Of a stretch of DNA of 44,648 bases, positions 1 to 36,189 are shown piece by piece. Position 1 is the stretch's first letter, and every line of letters begins with the position of its first letter. The stretch is taken from positions 1 through 44,648 of the forward strand of contig CAYSSL010000001.1 of NCBI GenBank assembly GCA_964433715.1. The letters are read 5' to 3'. The notes under the pieces are model-generated. The model did not search any database and was not told the DNA's origin. It was given only the letters and a program-made list of their open reading frames with translations. Both the position numbers and the translations under genes were made by a program. The DNA comes from an uncultured Candidatus Saccharibacteria bacterium (GTDB lineage Bacteria; Patescibacteriota; Minisyncoccia; Phycocordibacterales; XYD1-FULL-46-19).

Positions 1-2
1 TG

Positions 3-74
3 TGCCCCTGGCCGGAATCGAACCAGCATCTATCCCTTAGGACGGGACTGTTCTATCCATTGAACTACGGGGGC
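3..74 (-). tRNA. tRNA-Arg (anticodon CCT)
   Basis: The reverse complement folds as a cloverleaf. Acceptor GCCCCCG/CAGGGGC has one C-A mismatch. The D arm is GTTC..GAAC. The anticodon stem GTCCC/GGGAT carries loop GTCCTAA. The T arm is GCTGG-TTCGATT-CCGGC. Confidence 0.85.
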
Positions 75-395: not shown

Positions 396-692
396 TTATT
401 GTATCACACGTTCTAAATACTCCGAAATGTTATCCATTTGGCTTACTTTGTTCCGTTTTTTATAGCCACAGTCCACACATTTATGAGTAATAATAAATTC
501 ATCACCATTTTTTTCTAACTGTTCTGGCTCCATTAGCCCCCCACATTTGGCCGCTCGATCACCGGGGTTTACATCCACATGTTTACTCCATAAACAATGC
601 GGGCAGTGGTTGGTGTAGCCGTCACCTTTTACCGGCTTGTCACAATAGCCACAAACAAAGTCCTCTTTTAAACGTTTGAAGTTTTGAGCCAT
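396..692 (-). CDS. RNHCP-domain zinc-ribbon protein
   Basis: 98-aa ORF with Cys/His clusters (CGYC, NHCPHC, CVDC). The block YTNHCPHCLWSKHVD matches the RNHCP domain signature as I recall it. No obvious SD precedes the ATG. Confidence 0.7.
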   Translation of the reverse strand: MAQNFKRLKEDFVCGYCDKPVKGDGYTNHCPHCLWSKHVDVNPGDRAAKCGGLMEPEQLEKNGDEFIITHKCVDCGYKKRNKVSQMDNISEYLERVIQ

Positions 693-704
693 AAATTTAA
701 ATAG

Positions 705-913
705 TGCGGGTAGGGAATCTCCCGCGACTCAAAACTTTTTCGCCAAAAAGTTTTGGTCTGGGCACCTGCCCGCTCGTGCCTTGCATGGCAGGCGGGCCGG
801 CTCGCGCCAAAATTTTGCTAAATTTCGACTTCGTGCGCTCCGCCGTTCGATTCCCCCTACCCGACGACAAAAACATAGTCCCCTAAAGCTTTGCTTTTGG
901 CTCCTTGTTTTTG
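705..913 (-). other. structured module downstream of tRNA-Gly: conserved trailer, then a GC-rich core bracketed by inverted and direct copies of the tRNA-Gly 3' end
   Basis: 845-863 (gttcgattccccctacccg) is the exact reverse complement of 916-934 inside the tRNA gene. 705-719 (tgcgggtagggaatc) repeats 914-930 in the same orientation with a 2-nt gap. A perfect 11-bp hairpin lies at 730-755. A homologous module sits at 12649-12827. Confidence 0.6.
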
Positions 914-984
914 TGCGGGTAGGGGGAATCGAACCCCCGTCTCAACCTTGGGAAGGTCGTGTCATACCACTAAACTATACCCGC
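914..984 (-). tRNA. tRNA-Gly (anticodon CCC)
   Basis: Reverse complement GCGGGTATAGTTTAGTGGTATGACACGACCTTCCCAAGGTTGAGACGGGGGTTCGATTCCCCCTACCCGCA. The acceptor is GCGGGTA/TACCCGC. The anticodon stem CGACC/GGTTG carries loop TTCCCAA. The T arm is GGGGG-TTCGATT-CCCCC. CCA is not encoded. Confidence 0.9.
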
Positions 985-3351: not shown

Positions 3352-5028
3352 CTAAATTTCCTCTTCCCCCACCCTAATAGGTTCACGCCAAACTCGAGCC
3401 GACAAAGCATTAATAAATTCAGAAAGTTCAACATTTTTAAAGATAAACAACAAAGCGCCAGCAGAAACTAAGCCAAACATCCCAGCGCCAAAACCTTGAA
3501 GAAAAACTCCGGAATAAGTTTCTTGATTTATATATGGCAAAAGAATATTTAATGAATGGTAAGCAGTAAAACCAGCCATTACCGCCGCCGCGAAAGATTG
3601 AAACGCCGAGCGATAAACCAATGGATCAAATGGCGCAAAATCTCGGCCGAAAATTAGCCAATATATAAGAGCATTAACCGTAATACCAAAAGAATAAGCC
3701 AAGGGTAACATTAAAATACTAGTACCCGGAACCATATCTACTCTCAAGAGTATTTCAATAAAATAACGGAATATTAAAATGTGATCAAAAAGATAAGTGA
3801 AAATAAAAGCCGCTAAAATAATAACCGTAGAAGAAAATATATTTACAAACAAAGGCACTTTGGTTCTTCCGCTAGCATAATAAGCACGGACAAACAGCTG
3901 AACAAAACTCTGAGCCACAACCGACACCACAAACAAAGATAGTGCGGCGGCCACCAAACGAGTATCGGACCAGCTAAAATTTCCTGAACCTAAAATAACC
4001 CGCACAATTTGAGCACGCAAAATAATAAACAGGGTCATTGCCGGCAAAGACCAAAACAAAATATGTCTAATGGCTGTCTCAATTTTGCCAACAAATTTTT
4101 TTGTTTCTCCTTTTGAAAACAAGGCGGCTAAAGTAGGAAAAGCGGCCACCGAATAACTCACCCCGATAATAATAAGGGGTACCGACTGCAAATTAAAAGC
4201 AAAATTAAATACCGCAATAGAACCAACAGCCATCAGAGATCCGATCCCAACCAAAACCGTCAACGATATCTGGTGAACAGCCAAGGTTAAAGTTCGAGGC
4301 AAAGAAACAACGACAACCTCTTTAATTTCCTTCCAGTCTATGCCCCAAGTTGGTCGAGGCATCAATCCCAGCCGATAGACACTAGGAATCTGTATCGCTA
4401 GATGAAAGATAGCGCCAATCACCACCCCCCACGCCAATCCCGCCAGACCATATAATGGGTACAACCACAAAATACCAATAATGAGCCCAATGTTGTACAA
4501 CACCGGACTCAAGGTATAAGCCAAAAATTTACGATAACTTTGGGTAATAGCTCCCAAAAAATTTGATAGTCCAAGCAGAAGTGGCGACAACAACAAGATC
4601 CGAGATAAATATACCAAATCAGCCTGTGCGGATGACGAAAAGCCTTTAGCTATAAAAGGAGCCAAAAGGGGCATAAGCCAAAAAGCCAATAGTCCAACCA
4701 ATAAAGTGGCGAGAGAAAATACCGTGGCAATACTTGAAAGAAATTTTTCTACTTGGTGTGTCCCTTCTTTTTCTTTGTACCTTAAAATGAAAGGAATCAA
4801 AACGGTTACCGATACTATTGAGGCAAAAGTAACATAAATAAGATCGGGAATACGAAAAGCAGTATAGTAAATATCCAGTTCAGCCCCAGCCCCAAAAGTA
4901 GAGGCCAGCAGTCTATCTCTAACCAATGCCAAAACCTGAGCCGCCAGAGACGATAGACCCAAAAGAAAAGCAGCCTGATGAAGGCCACTCCATTCTTTAT
5001 AAAGAAGTGAGATTAGTCTGGTGACCAC
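3352..5028 (-). CDS. murJ: lipid II flippase MurJ/MviN family
   Basis: 558-aa polytopic membrane protein. The N-terminal region (AAQVLALVRDRLLASTFGAG..LDIYYTAFRIPDL) is typical of MurJ. Confidence 0.8.
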   Translation of the reverse strand: MVTRLISLLYKEWSGLHQAAFLLGLSSLAAQVLALVRDRLLASTFGAGAELDIYYTAFRIPDLIYVTFASIVSVTVLIPFILRYKEKEGTHQVEKFLSSIATVFSLATLLVGLLAFWLMPLLAPFIAKGFSSSAQADLVYLSRILLLSPLLLGLSNFLGAITQSYRKFLAYTLSPVLYNIGLIIGILWLYPLYGLAGLAWGVVIGAIFHLAIQIPSVYRLGLMPRPTWGIDWKEIKEVVVVSLPRTLTLAVHQISLTVLVGIGSLMAVGSIAVFNFAFNLQSVPLIIIGVSYSVAAFPTLAALFSKGETKKFVGKIETAIRHILFWSLPAMTLFIILRAQIVRVILGSGNFSWSDTRLVAAALSLFVVSVVAQSFVQLFVRAYYASGRTKVPLFVNIFSSTVIILAAFIFTYLFDHILIFRYFIEILLRVDMVPGTSILMLPLAYSFGITVNALIYWLIFGRDFAPFDPLVYRSAFQSFAAAVMAGFTAYHSLNILLPYINQETYSGVFLQGFGAGMFGLVSAGALLFIFKNVELSEFINALSARVWREPIRVGEEEI

Positions 5029-5042
5029 GGTATAATAACCCT

Positions 5043-7508
5043 TTAATTTTCAGTCTGATCAGTTTCCTCTTCACCTGTCTTAGCGGCAGCATCCTCCTCT
5101 GGTGTCTCCGCTTCAGTCGTCTTGGCTGGTCCAATACCAGATAGGGCGTCACGACCAGCACGAAGGTTGCGAACAATCTGAGCCACCTCGGCATTATCGG
5201 GATTAAACTTAGCAATCAACTCAAATTGCTCCAATGCCTTGGCTGTTAAACCCTGAGCATCATAAGCTAAACCTAAAAAGTAAGAAGCGTTGGCATTAAG
5301 CCCATTAGGACTGAGGGTTTGCACTTTTTTCATCGCCTGAATTGACCCCTCATAGTCGCCGGCGCGATAACGCAAGAAACCTAGTTGGAAAAACAAGCTC
5401 GGATCATTTGGCATCGTAGCTACAGCCTTTTCTAGTCGTTCAATCGCAGCCATAGTACCAGACCCCTCAAGATCTAGCTGAGTCAGCAATAAAATAGAAG
5501 AGGTATAATTGGTTTTTATTGCCAAAGCTTGCTCTAGGTAGTTGCGCGCACTATTAAACTTGCTTTGACTAATTTCTAGTCGCGCCAAAGCCAACAAGAT
5601 CTCAGGATTATTAGGGTACTCTTTTAGAGTTGCCTGATAAATACCAAGGGCCTGATCATAAGCTCTAGGAATTTTAAGATTGGACAGATATTCATACACA
5701 CCGCCATGAGTCATGTGGTTAGTATAATCGGCCGGATTAAGACGCACCGCTTCGCCCGCTGCCCCAATTGCGACAGTTACAATATTTTGCAATAAAGGTT
5801 GAGCTGTTTCTTTGTCTACTTCAGACGAAGACAAAAGACCGTTCATTTCCCTAATTTTGTTTTCAGCTAAAGCCCGATAATAAAGAGGGTCGCCAGAATT
5901 TAAGTTTATAGACTTTACTAAAAGATTGTTGGCATTAGTAAAGTTACCAAGAGACAATTCGTTTACCGCCTTTTGATAAGTCACCACTGACCAAAAACGC
6001 TGGATCAACAGATAGCCACCAGCAATAGTAACTATTAGTAGTAACACCAACACCAAGAGGGCGGCAAAATAGTTTCTAGGGTTAGAATGTAATTTTATCT
6101 CTCTAATCGGCACAATTTTACTAGCAGACAAAGTGGCAATAAAAATTCCAGACATAACAAACAACATCGGAAGGCCAATTGAATCAGGAGTATAGATTAT
6201 GGACATTACCCAAAAATAAACCATTCCCACAAACGACAGGGTGATCAAAAACTGACTCAATGGGTCAGTTGACCAAATACGGAAAGCTTTGACAGCAACA
6301 TACAGCAACGAACCAGCCAAAAACAACCAAGCTAATATACCCAATATCCCAGTGGTAACAGCAAAAGTGGGCAATATTCCGACCGCATCTGCAAAATTAA
6401 CATTCCAGTACTGCAATTCGTTAATCAATCTTGGTTTATGCACCGCCCAAGCGTTAGAAAAATTACTTGGACCAATACCAGTGAGAGGGTCTTTCATTAA
6501 AACTTCTTTGGCCACCGCTCCAGTACTAGACCAGCTTGGTCGAGCCTCCAAAAAAGAAATGTTTAAAGTAGAATAAGCACTGTTTAGTTTTTCTGCCAAA
6601 AGTCCACCCTGTCGACCCAAAATCAAAAACAAAAGAGCCACCAAAACTACAAAAAATGATGCTCTAAATACTTTTTGCCCGCCAAGAAACCCTTGAGGAC
6701 TAACTCCATTCCCCCTCAATTCTCGAGAACTTACCGTAATACCATAAACAAAAGTTAAAAGCGCCACCAAGCCAACCACCACCCAGCCGGCGATAAAATT
6801 AGTGAAAGACATCATCAACAAAGACAGAACAAGAGAGGTGATGGAAAGGCGTTTTAAGATAACACTGTCCCCTGTCGCCGATAATTCCAACATTAAAAGC
6901 GAAACAATAGAGGTAAAACCAAAAAACACGCTCATTTCAAACCATTTACCAATCAGACTTTGGGGTAAAAAATTAAATATAGAGGTCGTAATCAAACCAC
7001 CAACTGCAAATATAACAATCTGATAAACCGCCAAAACTATTGAGGACAGAGATATGACAAGATATAAATTAAATATCTTCTTCCGACTATCAAAGAGAGT
7101 GGCAACCAAGAAAAATGAAATGGCTAAAGCAATAATAGAAAAAGCTGTCCCCGATTGATACAAGGGACCAACTAAAGAGTAGTAAGGATTTACCGAAAAT
7201 ATGCCCGAAATAACAAACGACAGTGGAACCAAAGCTAGGGCTAACATCGGCAACGTCCAAGGTATTTTTATTTCACCTTCTTGGAGACGACCGACTAGCC
7301 ACAAGGCAATTGTGACGACCAGCAAACTAAGTAAAAAGAACTTTTTACTTACATCTGGTGCAAGACCTATCATCCAAAAAGAAACGAGGGGAAGGACAAT
7401 AATACTCGCAAACTGGACCCAATAAGCCGCCATGTCGGCCGTAATAAAAGAAGCTCTCTTTTCCGTCAACAACGTTCGACCAGTGGACATATTTTTTACT
7501 ATGGACAT
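5043..7508 (-). CDS. O-antigen ligase (Wzy_C)-like polytopic membrane protein with C-terminal TPR repeats
   Basis: 821 aa. About 500 aa have many TM helices. A soluble tail follows with repeated A/Y/L TPR-like units (e.g. YYRALAENK, ALGIYQATLKEYPNNPE, FFQLGFLRYRAGDYEGS). Confidence 0.65.
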   Translation of the reverse strand: MSIVKNMSTGRTLLTEKRASFITADMAAYWVQFASIIVLPLVSFWMIGLAPDVSKKFFLLSLLVVTIALWLVGRLQEGEIKIPWTLPMLALALVPLSFVISGIFSVNPYYSLVGPLYQSGTAFSIIALAISFFLVATLFDSRKKIFNLYLVISLSSIVLAVYQIVIFAVGGLITTSIFNFLPQSLIGKWFEMSVFFGFTSIVSLLMLELSATGDSVILKRLSITSLVLSLLMMSFTNFIAGWVVVGLVALLTFVYGITVSSRELRGNGVSPQGFLGGQKVFRASFFVVLVALLFLILGRQGGLLAEKLNSAYSTLNISFLEARPSWSSTGAVAKEVLMKDPLTGIGPSNFSNAWAVHKPRLINELQYWNVNFADAVGILPTFAVTTGILGILAWLFLAGSLLYVAVKAFRIWSTDPLSQFLITLSFVGMVYFWVMSIIYTPDSIGLPMLFVMSGIFIATLSASKIVPIREIKLHSNPRNYFAALLVLVLLLIVTIAGGYLLIQRFWSVVTYQKAVNELSLGNFTNANNLLVKSINLNSGDPLYYRALAENKIREMNGLLSSSEVDKETAQPLLQNIVTVAIGAAGEAVRLNPADYTNHMTHGGVYEYLSNLKIPRAYDQALGIYQATLKEYPNNPEILLALARLEISQSKFNSARNYLEQALAIKTNYTSSILLLTQLDLEGSGTMAAIERLEKAVATMPNDPSLFFQLGFLRYRAGDYEGSIQAMKKVQTLSPNGLNANASYFLGLAYDAQGLTAKALEQFELIAKFNPDNAEVAQIVRNLRAGRDALSGIGPAKTTEAETPEEDAAAKTGEEETDQTEN

Positions 7509-7840: not shown

Positions 7841-7848
7841 ATATTTTT

Positions 7849-8272
7849 GTCTCCTGTCTATAAGCCGAATTCTGTATCCACCATAAGTGGACGACGATCA
7901 TTTATCTGGGATAACTGTTACCAGCTACCTCAAGCGGCACAAACCAAACTAAAAGTTTGGAGTACGGCCTTGCACTTAGATAGGTATTTAGCCGTTTCAA
8001 TCTCTAGGTTTCCCTAAAGCTTCACCCCGAAGGGTGCCCTCGTTTCTCAACTTGGGCGTCACTGCTCGCAACCCTCAGATTACTCTGGACGGGTGTTACC
8101 CGCTACCATGCTGCCCTGTGGAATAAAAAATTCAAAATATTACAGACACCAACCGTTGTCCTGAATCTGTTATATCACTAAACTTTAAACTCTTTATTCC
8201 ACAGGGCAAGTGTTCGGACTTTCCTCTATTTACGTAAATCAATACATAAACAGCGACCATCCAACAGGAGAC
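7849..8272 (-). ncRNA. rnpB: RNase P RNA
   Basis: The reverse complement carries GAGGAAAGTCCG (8215-8226, CR-I), ACAGAATTCGGCTTA (7861-7875, CR-V) and GGGTGAAGC..GGGAAAC. The P1 candidate pairs GTCTCCTGT (8264-8272) with ACAGGAGAC (7849-7857). The end coordinates are approximate. Confidence 0.85.
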
Positions 8273-12648: not shown

Positions 12649-12827
12649 TGGCGGAGGCGGAGGGATTCGGTCAGGAATATTTTTCTCGCCGTCGCTCGAA
12701 AATTTTCACGACCCTGCCTCGGCAACGACCGCTACTGCGGTCGGCTTCGCGCCTGCGGCTTTCAAATCCCTCCGCCTCATCGCAAAATATAGTCGACCAA
12801 AGGCTTTGCTTTGGTTTCCTTATTTTG
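12649..12827 (-). other. structured module downstream of tRNA-Ser: conserved trailer, then a GC-rich core bracketed by inverted and direct (CCA-bearing) copies of the tRNA-Ser 3' end
   Basis: The reverse complement of 12649-12669 is CGAATCCCTCCGCCTCCGCCA, i.e. the tRNA-Ser 3' end plus discriminator plus CCA. 12761-12778 (ttcaaatccctccgcctc) is a 17/18 inverted copy of the T-loop/acceptor 3' strand. The trailer 12779-12827 is homologous to 864-913. Confidence 0.6.
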
Positions 12828-12914
12828 CGGAGGCGGAGGGATTCGAACCCTCGAAGGGGTTGCCCCCTTACACGCTTTCCAAGCGTGCGCACTAGACCAC
12901 TATGCGACGCCTCC
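12828..12914 (-). tRNA. tRNA-Ser (anticodon GGA)
   Basis: The reverse complement begins GGAGGCGTCGCATAGTGG. The anticodon stem CACGC/GCGTG carries loop TTGGAAA. A long variable arm (GGGGGCAACCCC) is present. The T arm is GAGGG-TTCGAAT-CCCTC and the acceptor 3' strand is CGCCTCC plus G. The gene is followed by CAAAA, so CCA is not encoded. Confidence 0.9.
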
Positions 12915-36138: not shown

Positions 36139-36189
36139 AAAAAACGCGGGCTAGATTTGAAGGCGTATACACCTTCAAATCTAGCCCGC
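36139..36189 (-). terminator. strong terminator after the 32-aa ORF
   Basis: gcgggctagatttgaagg (36146-36163) pairs with ccttcaaatctagcccgc (36172-36189), an 18-bp stem. It is followed on the minus transcript by U6. Confidence 0.8.

Follow-up and report, generated by a model that had tools for sequence, protein, structure and literature searches.

Modules carrying inverted and direct copies of the adjoining tRNA-gene tail in Patescibacteria, a possible family of non-autonomous mobile elements

In a 44,648-nucleotide stretch of contig CAYSSL010000001.1 (assembly GCA_964433715.1, positions 1 to 44,648; hereafter the window), deposited as DNA of an uncultured Candidatus Saccharibacteria bacterium, a tRNA-Gly(CCC) gene and a tRNA-Ser(GGA) gene are each followed by a structured module whose arms are copies of the 3' end (the tail) of that same tRNA gene. 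We consider, with a probability of about 0.5, that modules of this design form a family of mobile elements that are non-autonomous and operate in single-stranded form, the inner arm of the element pairing with the tRNA-gene tail. A first-pass annotation of the window, made from its letters alone, had listed a remnant or product of a tRNA-targeting miniature element among its hypotheses, and this has become the best supported of them on account of empty sites, mixed arrays, decayed copies and differing families at orthologous tRNAs.

Results

An insertion directly behind tRNA-Gly(CCC)

The tRNA-Gly(CCC) locus is read on the minus strand and consists of the following parts (A1, tail; A', inner arm; A2, distal copy; N73, tRNA position 73), with a tRNA-Arg gene close by.

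914..984 (called as 913/914-984), minus strand: tRNA-Gly(CCC), without encoded CCA (ARAGORN; Rfam, 67.4 bits)
933-914, minus strand: A1, tRNA-Gly positions 54-73 (sequence)
868..913, minus strand: trailer hairpin directly after N73, CAAAAACAAGGAG..GGGGACTATGTTTTTG (fold and alignment of 61 trailers)
864..867, minus strand: linker TCGT, the T of which pairs with A73 while the remainder is a small bulge (sequence)
845..863, minus strand: inner arm A', CGGGTAGGGGGAATCGAAC, a 19/19 complement of tRNA positions 53/54-72 (script comparison)
720..844, minus strand: GC-rich core with three hairpins (sequence; fold z = -5.2)
705..719, minus strand: A2, the direct copy at the distal end, from tRNA-Gly positions 57-73, GATTCCCTACCCGCA (sequence)
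693..704, minus strand: native downstream flank of tRNA-Gly, ctatttaaattt, 12 nt, up to the RNHCP start codon at 692 (comparison with L001)
2-74, minus strand: tRNA-Arg (ARAGORN, Rfam)

The RNHCP protein places the host among Vogelbacteria-like Patescibacteria, and the locus was compared with syntenic loci from three relatives that have the gene order LepA, small gene, tRNA-Gly(CCC), RNHCP, glutaredoxin and tRNA-Arg. In L001-L005 the tRNA gene is directly joined to cccttaatttATG, in L006 it is directly followed by ctATG and in L007 by another open reading frame (ORF), in each case with no module; in L001-L006 the RNHCP gene lies within 2-10 nt of the tRNA. In the window a flank of the same kind, ctatttaaatttATG, resumes after A2. 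Because the relatives are free of the module and the native-type flank follows A2, the DNA from window position 913 to 705 is extra DNA set exactly after N73. Judged by this synteny, window 705-913 is shown to be a 209-bp non-coding insertion between N73 of tRNA-Gly(CCC) and the native flank, which agrees with the ~210-nt module described in the first pass; its trailer starts at 913, right after N73 (914), and here the earlier description had to be corrected. The right boundary of the insertion is A2, in which the 2-nt gap reported before is a 2-nt deletion in a C run. Both arms bear the window's own acceptor allele (TA; ..CCCTACCCG), and the tRNA of L001 has the CG allele (..CCCTGCCCG).

Other details of the first description were reproduced: a script matched 845-863 as a 19/19 reverse complement of the tRNA tail, a perfect 11-bp hairpin lies within the core at 730-755, and 12 nt separate the distal copy from the RNHCP ATG (692). 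The start codon of RNHCP stands 10-12 nt after the tRNA (L001 2994-3003) or after the module (window 690-704) and has no Shine-Dalgarno sequence, as had been remarked; RNHCP is probably either leaderless or expressed from the transcript of the tRNA.

In the predicted fold of the Gly trailer, a basal stem of 8 bp leads by way of a bulged A and a tandem G.A to an apical stem-loop, and A', A1 and the trailer together make up a single interrupted palindrome of ~40 bp. The Gly module and its Ser counterpart fold far better than shuffled sequences (z -5 to -10), and in full-length folds of both the inner arm is paired with the tRNA tail, an option of the antisense arm that the first pass had raised and that is conserved in the family described below.

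A second module behind tRNA-Ser(GGA)

The window contains a second module on the same strand, with these parts.

12828..12914 (called as 12827/8-12914), minus strand: tRNA-Ser(GGA) (ARAGORN, Rfam)
12649-12827, minus strand: second module, behind tRNA-Ser(GGA) (sequence)
12783..12827, minus strand: trailer hairpin (fold, alignment)
12761..12778, minus strand: inner arm A', GAGGCGGAGGGATTTGAA (script comparison)
12670..12760, minus strand: core, type 1a, two hairpins with conserved GCGACGGCG and GGGUCG motifs (15-sequence alignment, covarying stems)
12652..12669, minus strand: A2, 18-19 nt identical to the tRNA tail, then CCA (12649-12651) (sequence)

This module had been proposed as a homologue with its arms changed to tRNA-Ser sequence and with trailer and core shared. 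The homology is real, the trailer being 80% identical to that of the Gly module with compensatory changes in the basal stem, but the cores are of different types and have only the first ~20 nt and the general design in common. The Ser inner arm is an inverted copy of the window's tRNA tail with 14 exact positions, a G.T and 3 further positions; against the L011 allele of the tRNA its complementarity is 18/18, and with the window allele it forms one G.U.

The same Ser module is present in an independent assembly (L011/L109, GCA_030916795.1). That the modules arose in this metagenome-assembled genome (MAG) by chimeric assembly or as an artefact of local duplication has a vanishingly small probability in our judgement: short repeats could in principle confuse assemblers, and the boundary of the L109/window mosaic does lie in A2, but the same modules occur in independent assemblies and at 76 loci from JGI, ENA and NCBI, by which the artefact is refuted for the module itself, and the microhomology at the L109/window junction is only 7 nt. 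The mosaic is an observation of its own. L011/L109 (JAUPVZ010000019.1) is 98.99% identical to the window over 7.4 kb, ending inside the Ser A2, with divergence from window 12662 and L109 7439 onward; there follow ~1 kb of differing genes (a TehB-like methyltransferase and an 80-aa ORF versus DUF1653), past which the syntenic DsbA-VKOR-RNR-RNase P-TPR region is only 65-74% identical. The switch of identity inside A2 is either a mosaic or horizontal-gene-transfer boundary at the module, or a MAG chimera.

A family of modules with arms cognate to the adjoining tRNA

A strict trailer pattern, which proved too narrow, returned only the near-identical L011 and 11 chance matches from GTDB representatives. 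A looser pattern prescribed the T-loop, its distance from the end of the tRNA and three short motifs of the trailer, and left acceptor, arm and core free. This pattern gave two matches in the window and 0 in the shuffled window, and it gave 78 metagenome loci (JGI, ENA and NCBI samples) versus ~5 expected by rough estimate. Two of the 78 are chance matches in coding DNA, so that 76 are true; two are internal units of arrays, and the others are a tRNA followed by a trailer. The recurrence of cognate inverted and direct copies at other tRNAs that the first pass had asked for was thus found.

The family comprises 64 unique modules with 57 arm sequences in 27 anticodon classes (Ala, Arg, Asp, Gln, Glu, Gly, Ile, Leu, Ser, Trp, Tyr and Val), which bears out the earlier suggestion that the arms track the neighbouring tRNA; in 59/64 modules the inner arm aligns to the complement of the adjoining tail over 15-20 positions with 0-5 mismatches. 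When all 185 tRNAs of the fetched loci were scanned, 70 had the trailer. Among the 115 trailer-less ones, 17 are followed by inverted and direct tail copies with other spacers and 19 more by one of the two copies; 79 of the 185 have no module of any kind. These variant families add His, Pro, Lys, Cys, Phe, Met and Thr, and in them a small hairpin with a CUGS loop interrupts the anti-arm at the junction of acceptor and T-stem. The hosts are Vogelbacteria- and Kaiserbacteria-like genomes, including named Vogelbacteria, Kaiserbacteria and Patescibacteria (the ClpB of L077, for instance, is 83-86% identical to named Kaiserbacteria proteins), and the family specialises on tRNA-gene tails in Parcubacteria-type Patescibacteria, members of the candidate phyla radiation (CPR).

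In L006 (1286-1500), the acceptor 3' strand of a tRNA-Arg(CCT) takes part in a 13-bp hairpin behind the gene, and next comes a ~200-nt GC-rich structured block with no direct repeat, missing in L001 and L007; this block may be a further module family.

Module anatomy and the conserved pairing

The order of parts is the same throughout: a conserved trailer hairpin of 45 nt, the inner arm complementary to tRNA positions 54-73, a variable multi-hairpin core and a direct copy of tRNA positions 56-73, within a module size of 150-210 bp that is constant across ~75 loci. From the base upward, the trailer consists of 8 bp of stem, a bulged A, two pairs, the tandem G.A (AGGAG/CGACU) and an apical stem-loop that varies. 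In an alignment of 61 trailers 94% of the cells are paired and 164 cells have double-sided changes; 0/500 shuffles reached these values, and slid controls were only 34-54% paired. Covariation is accordingly strong in the trailer, and the core stems covary in type 1a, but there is none for a helix between A' and A2. Since the linker in most members is the complement of N73 plus one bulged A, tail, trailer and arm form one interrupted palindrome of ~40 bp. Three boundaries are fixed, namely the element start (N73|+1), the arm end at the complement of T54 and the start of the distal copy at C56. At least three core types exist (type 1a being that of the window's Ser module), and one core type is found behind many different tRNAs at 76-89% identity.

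Wherever a tRNA stem pair is non-Watson-Crick, the arm can be compared with either strand of the stem, and at 27/32 such sites it is the Watson-Crick complement of the tail 3' strand. The arm therefore complements the tail and was not copied from the tRNA 5' strand, an origin that we reject. Mismatches between A1 and A' are 32 of G.U type, 13 C.A, 0 A.C and 23 other; such tolerance of wobble solely on the tRNA-sense strand points to a single-stranded sense form. The distal copy is identical to the tail in 32/48 alignable modules and is diverged, or truncated after its T-stem part, in the other 16. Where A2 differs from the tRNA, A' stays complementary to the tRNA at ~27/32 positions and follows A2 at 3, and the A':A2 helix is for this reason not the maintained pairing. 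The minihelix by which the two arms had been proposed to close the core can thus form but is not conserved, and we reject selection on it, as A' shows no compensation toward A2. We likewise reject a mimic of the acceptor/T minihelix (A':A2 lacks compensation, and A' is a Watson-Crick complement, not the tRNA 5' strand, at 27/32 sites). The conserved pairing is that of the tRNA tail with the inner arm.

On the basis of this geometry, a by-product of replication or repair, in which a hairpin behind the tRNA is lengthened by intrastrand template switching with no dedicated mobility, might be proposed, since A' is a pure Watson-Crick copy of the tail and is continuous with the hairpin stem. We regard this origin as very improbable: the T54 end is fixed in nearly all copies, the linker bulge and the cores are conserved, a terminal direct copy is present, and the whole block is missing at empty sites.

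The cores are strongly enriched in C(GNA)G triloops (GCGNAGC 23 times in 5.3 kb of cores versus 2.9 expected), and GNRA-type tetraloops are fewer. The oligonucleotide d(GCGAAGC) is a classic ultra-stable DNA mini-hairpin, and the enrichment is a weak hint that the modules fold as DNA. Identity pairs of the tRNA such as G3.U70 are reproduced by A' inconsistently (3/6 Ala modules). A terminator comes after A2 in several loci; none was found in the interval from tRNA to module, nor was there a convincing promoter inside the module. A Shine-Dalgarno sequence with a mini-ORF in the trailer (AAGGAG) was dismissed, as the place of the ATG varies among members and AAGGAG takes part in the tandem G.A pairing.

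Arrays, decay and turnover

Several tRNA genes are followed by more than one unit. Identical tandem arrays occur in L075/L102 (2.2 units) and L091 (at least 3 units), and mixed arrays in L031, L040 and L041, where in L041 a unit with variant trailer and type-2 core precedes one with standard trailer and type-3 core. Decay is further advanced in the distal units and distal tail copies than in proximal ones, which suggests that new units enter beside the tRNA. Internally deleted or trailer-only remnants are found in L035, L042, L044, L048 and L092. Closely related tRNA loci may have the same trailer and arm with a different core type (L033 versus L106, L040 versus L078), and orthologous tRNAs may hold different families: the tRNA-Ser(GGA) of the relative L110 is followed by a variant-family module with a different core from that of the window. 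In L057 the A2 is nearer to the tail of another tRNA-Arg (1 difference) than to its own (3 differences). Taken together, the mixed arrays, truncated copies and different families at orthologous tRNAs show repeated insertion.

Apparent cargo-bearing copies in L042 and L077 were discarded, the distant repeats being second tRNA genes or duplications. In L077, HicA/HicB-like genes lie in a block of 2.2 kb (+270 to +2450 from the T-loop of tRNA-Tyr, oriented). The block is flanked by ~270-bp direct repeats that each hold the whole tRNA-Tyr module and 70 nt of flank, and the right repeat is preceded by a foreign 27-mer resembling a tRNA tail.

The modules could also be scars of integrase-mediated integration in the T-loop by prophages or islands, which duplicate the tRNA tail, left over after deletion of the cargo. 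An 18-nt direct repeat from the T-loop to the 3' end is a textbook att layout, units do accrete at the same tRNA, a strain-mosaic breakpoint lies inside A2, and L111 has a serine recombinase element at tRNA-Ser. Yet size (150-210 bp) is constant over ~75 loci and the internal structure is conserved and covaries, an outcome on which random deletions would not converge; no integrase or cargo stands between the repeats at any locus; and the inverted arm has no counterpart in att scars. We therefore hold such scars to be improbable. The L111 element is a large serine recombinase (3807-5287; Resolvase, Recombinase and Zn_ribbon) directly after tRNA-Ser(GGA); it is missing in L112/L113, and AATTCCCGCCA occurs three times behind the tRNA in L111.

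Searches for relatives and partner enzymes

Both window modules and 12 further loci were compared with Rfam under gathering and E-value thresholds, and only tRNA and RNase P reached threshold. Hits in the module regions had E > 0.001 and lay well below gathering, with T-box, tmRNA, tRNA-like, HDV-like, hatchet, hammerhead, HEARO, ROOL and GOLLD families unmatched. The impression that no known RNA family is involved thus held in Rfam; the proposal of a tRNA-sensing leader or terminator did not, there being no T-box or other Rfam match and no terminator. Hammerhead, HDV-like and K-turn readings of the trailer were set aside, as their motifs misfit in a hand alignment.

Neither module had a BLAST match among phage genomes, and viral contigs scanned with the strict trailer, two tRNA-tail, tRNA-linked and tRNA-free trailer patterns gave only chance coding matches or ordinary tRNA-Ser tails. 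No Y1 HUH transposase (TnpA) was found in the window or in ~600 kb of loci, and the ORFs behind truncated modules revealed no partner enzyme. Clustering of the gene neighbourhoods brought out nothing beyond synteny of housekeeping genes: LepA is found within a few kb of modules in 7 loci, a CCA-adding-enzyme-like gene in 6 (e.g. L068, L100) and a XerC/D-like recombinase in 4. The recurrence of these three genes is probably conserved synteny around tRNA genes. Limited literature searches yielded no description of such elements, and we could not place the family in any known class.

Other features of the window and the fetched loci

The three tRNA genes of the window are all on the minus strand, as is its RNase P RNA (7845-8272). 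The latter scores 103.6 bits versus an Rfam gathering threshold of 100, which suggests a divergent class A RNA. A near-perfect palindrome of 44 nt at window 36146-36189 (22-nt arms, 95% complementary, no spacer) is unrelated to the modules. In L006 (1-580), a GIY-YIG ORF (105-377) lies between 13-bp inverted repeats, cccacacactaac and gttagtgtgtggg, in the D-loop of a decayed tRNA-Gly copy, followed by a 5' tRNA-Gly fragment with a solo repeat and then an intact tRNA-Gly; these genomes thus contain another type of element that targets tRNAs, unrelated to the modules. A group I intron match of 56 bits, above gathering, was found at L007 5807-6050 on a Vogelbacteria-like contig.

Discussion

If the modules are mobile elements, the element would move, or would have moved, as a single strand of tRNA-sense polarity, with DNA slightly favoured over RNA. 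Pairing of the inner arm with the tRNA-gene tail would fix the insertion point right after N73, the tail joining the long palindrome, and the enzyme would be supplied in trans. The terminal copy could be the element's own end or an att-type duplicate, dispensable once inserted and then free to decay, and new copies entering beside the tRNA would push older ones outward into arrays.

Several observations weigh against this explanation. Cores on different tRNAs are at most 89% identical, with no recent burst visible, and their conservation could reflect RNA function. The explanation would also require, as its central difficulty, that a 20-nt arm be re-specified for 57 different tails. No module copies were found on the viral contigs scanned. 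Pfam searches of the 30 window ORFs and clustering of 565 ORFs around ~75 loci turned up no transposase, integrase, HUH protein or reverse transcriptase, recurrent in the case of the clusters, and no cargo-bearing or autonomous copy was seen, the repeat spacing being 130-200 nt in all loci. The G.U bias in the trailer helices is weak (17 versus 12), and the split of the arm exactly at the acceptor/T-stem junction in the variant families looks like tRNA mimicry at the RNA level.

The main rival is a structured RNA used by the host and co-transcribed with the tRNA, which would either pair with the tRNA tail or adopt a fold resembling the top half of a tRNA and be cut out by RNase Z/RNase P, with possible roles in tRNA maturation, quality control, repair templating or decoying. 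It would account for modules that always lie on the tRNA strand, directly downstream and with no terminator between, for the terminator after A2 in several loci, and for strong covariation with wobble tolerated on the sense strand; core motifs 76-89% identical across tRNAs and across Vogel- and Kaiserbacteria, the frequency of modules in very small genomes, and the tRNA-like topology of the split-arm variants, whose hairpin sits at the very point at which the 5' strand of a tRNA departs from the acceptor/T stack, also speak for it. By contrast, orthologous tRNAs of close relatives do without the module, the same tRNA holds different families, arrays, truncations and decaying A2 copies are common, and 79/185 tRNAs have no module, while the A':A2 minihelix is not maintained, an identity pair such as G3.U70 is copied in just 3/6 Ala modules, and Rfam holds no relative. 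On balance we think a host-used RNA somewhat unlikely. The two explanations are not exclusive, as a selfish element that is harmless inside the tRNA transcript would show both sets of features.

Among known systems, IS200/IS605 elements and folded att sites (integron attC, CTX attP) offer the nearest working analogies. Because no defining feature of theirs that allowed a clear test was found in the modules, we do not count the modules as members of either. In IS200/IS605 'peel and paste' transposition, a short guide next to a subterminal hairpin reads the target by base pairing. Like these elements and the palindrome-associated transposable elements (PATEs), the modules are inserted directly 3' of a specific sequence, have an imperfect hairpin with a bulged base in subterminal position, strand-specific structural constraints and precise empty sites, exist as non-coding miniature copies, and have an end resembling the target. 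Unlike them, the module guide would be 20 nt rather than 4 and 3' of the hairpin rather than 5', the hairpin abuts the cleavage point, and no TnpA was found. Of the PATE features, hairpin, exact insertion point and sense-strand bias are present in a different geometry, and the copy of the tail at the end of the element is open to both readings. The folded sites of integrons (attC) and of CTX phage (attP(+)) are imperfect palindromes of 60-140 nt with conserved structure rather than sequence and extrahelical bases; they involve arrays of units and reproduce a duplex target by a hairpin, all of which the modules resemble; the modules differ in having no RYYYAAC/GTTRRRY boxes (by eye, the T-loop GTTCGAA/TTCGAAC fits only 5-6/7 positions), no IntI or other integrase that we could find, a tRNA tail instead of attI/dif as target, and a palindrome partly made of the chromosomal tRNA.

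Integrative elements that target tRNA genes (tyrosine-integrase prophages, islands and cis-mobilizable elements, CIMEs) likewise insert at the 3' part of the tRNA and keep it intact, with a repeat from T-loop to discriminator and tandem accretion. The modules share the distal direct repeat with a restored tRNA, but they measure 150-210 bp, have no integrase or cargo between the repeats, possess a conserved hairpin and a full inverted copy of the att segment, and serve at least 27 tRNA species with one module family. REP/REPIN sequences (mobilised by RAYT) are also small, GC-rich, intergenic, non-autonomous hairpin repeats that form single-strand hairpins, but REPINs are not tied to tRNAs, nor do they duplicate any part of an adjoining gene. 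A further comparison is with plant mitochondrial t-elements, mascRNA, tmRNA and the HDV-like theta ribozymes behind phage tRNAs, RNAs that imitate or abut the acceptor/T part of a tRNA and may, as the modules may, be cut by tRNA-processing enzymes; the modules differ in giving no Rfam hit, in helices identical in sequence to the adjoining tRNA and in a base-paired T-loop. The primer-binding site of retroviruses and long-terminal-repeat (LTR) elements is a similar stretch of 18-20 nt complementary to the 3' end of a specific tRNA, but the complement in the modules excludes CCA (no TGG) and adjoins the tRNA gene, and no reverse transcriptase was found. A classical miniature inverted-repeat transposable element was rejected, as there is no inverted repeat between the ends (CAAAA... 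/ ...GTGACC+A2) and the direct repeat measures 18 nt rather than 2-10 bp. Casposons, which use a Cas1 integrase, reportedly prefer the 3' end of tRNA genes and make a long target duplication of 14-15 bp (PMC5137440), and in both respects they resemble the modules; they are large, with terminal inverted repeats, Cas1 and a polymerase, all of which the modules lack. TIGR arrays and the IS110 bridge RNA are described as having two short guides of 8-12 nt, box C/D motifs and a Nop-domain or DEDD protein (PMC12045711). Against this description they were rejected, as the modules are 150-210 nt long with one 20-nt arm and no such gene nearby.

We suggest only tentatively that the modules define either a class of guide-bearing elements (single-stranded DNA or RNA, protein-free in cis, with a 20-nt arm written from or selected against the tail) or a class of tRNA-linked RNAs governing tRNA 3'-end biology in CPR bacteria; the guide alternative, if true, would amount to a naturally re-programmable insertion system specific for tRNA tails. 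On either reading, the modules explain a sizeable share of the GC-rich 'intergenic' DNA behind CPR tRNA genes and mark recombination junctions between strains, and the at least 57 arm variants are a comparative data set for structure and mechanism. If they are functional RNAs, they would show that the smallest of bacterial genomes mature or protect their tRNAs by a further, hitherto hidden layer. If they are mobile, they would be site-specific elements that read their target by a long base-paired arm diversified over essentially the whole tRNA set, a natural form of programmable insertion with no adjacent protein gene and a lead to the recombinase or nuclease responsible in CPR bacteria.

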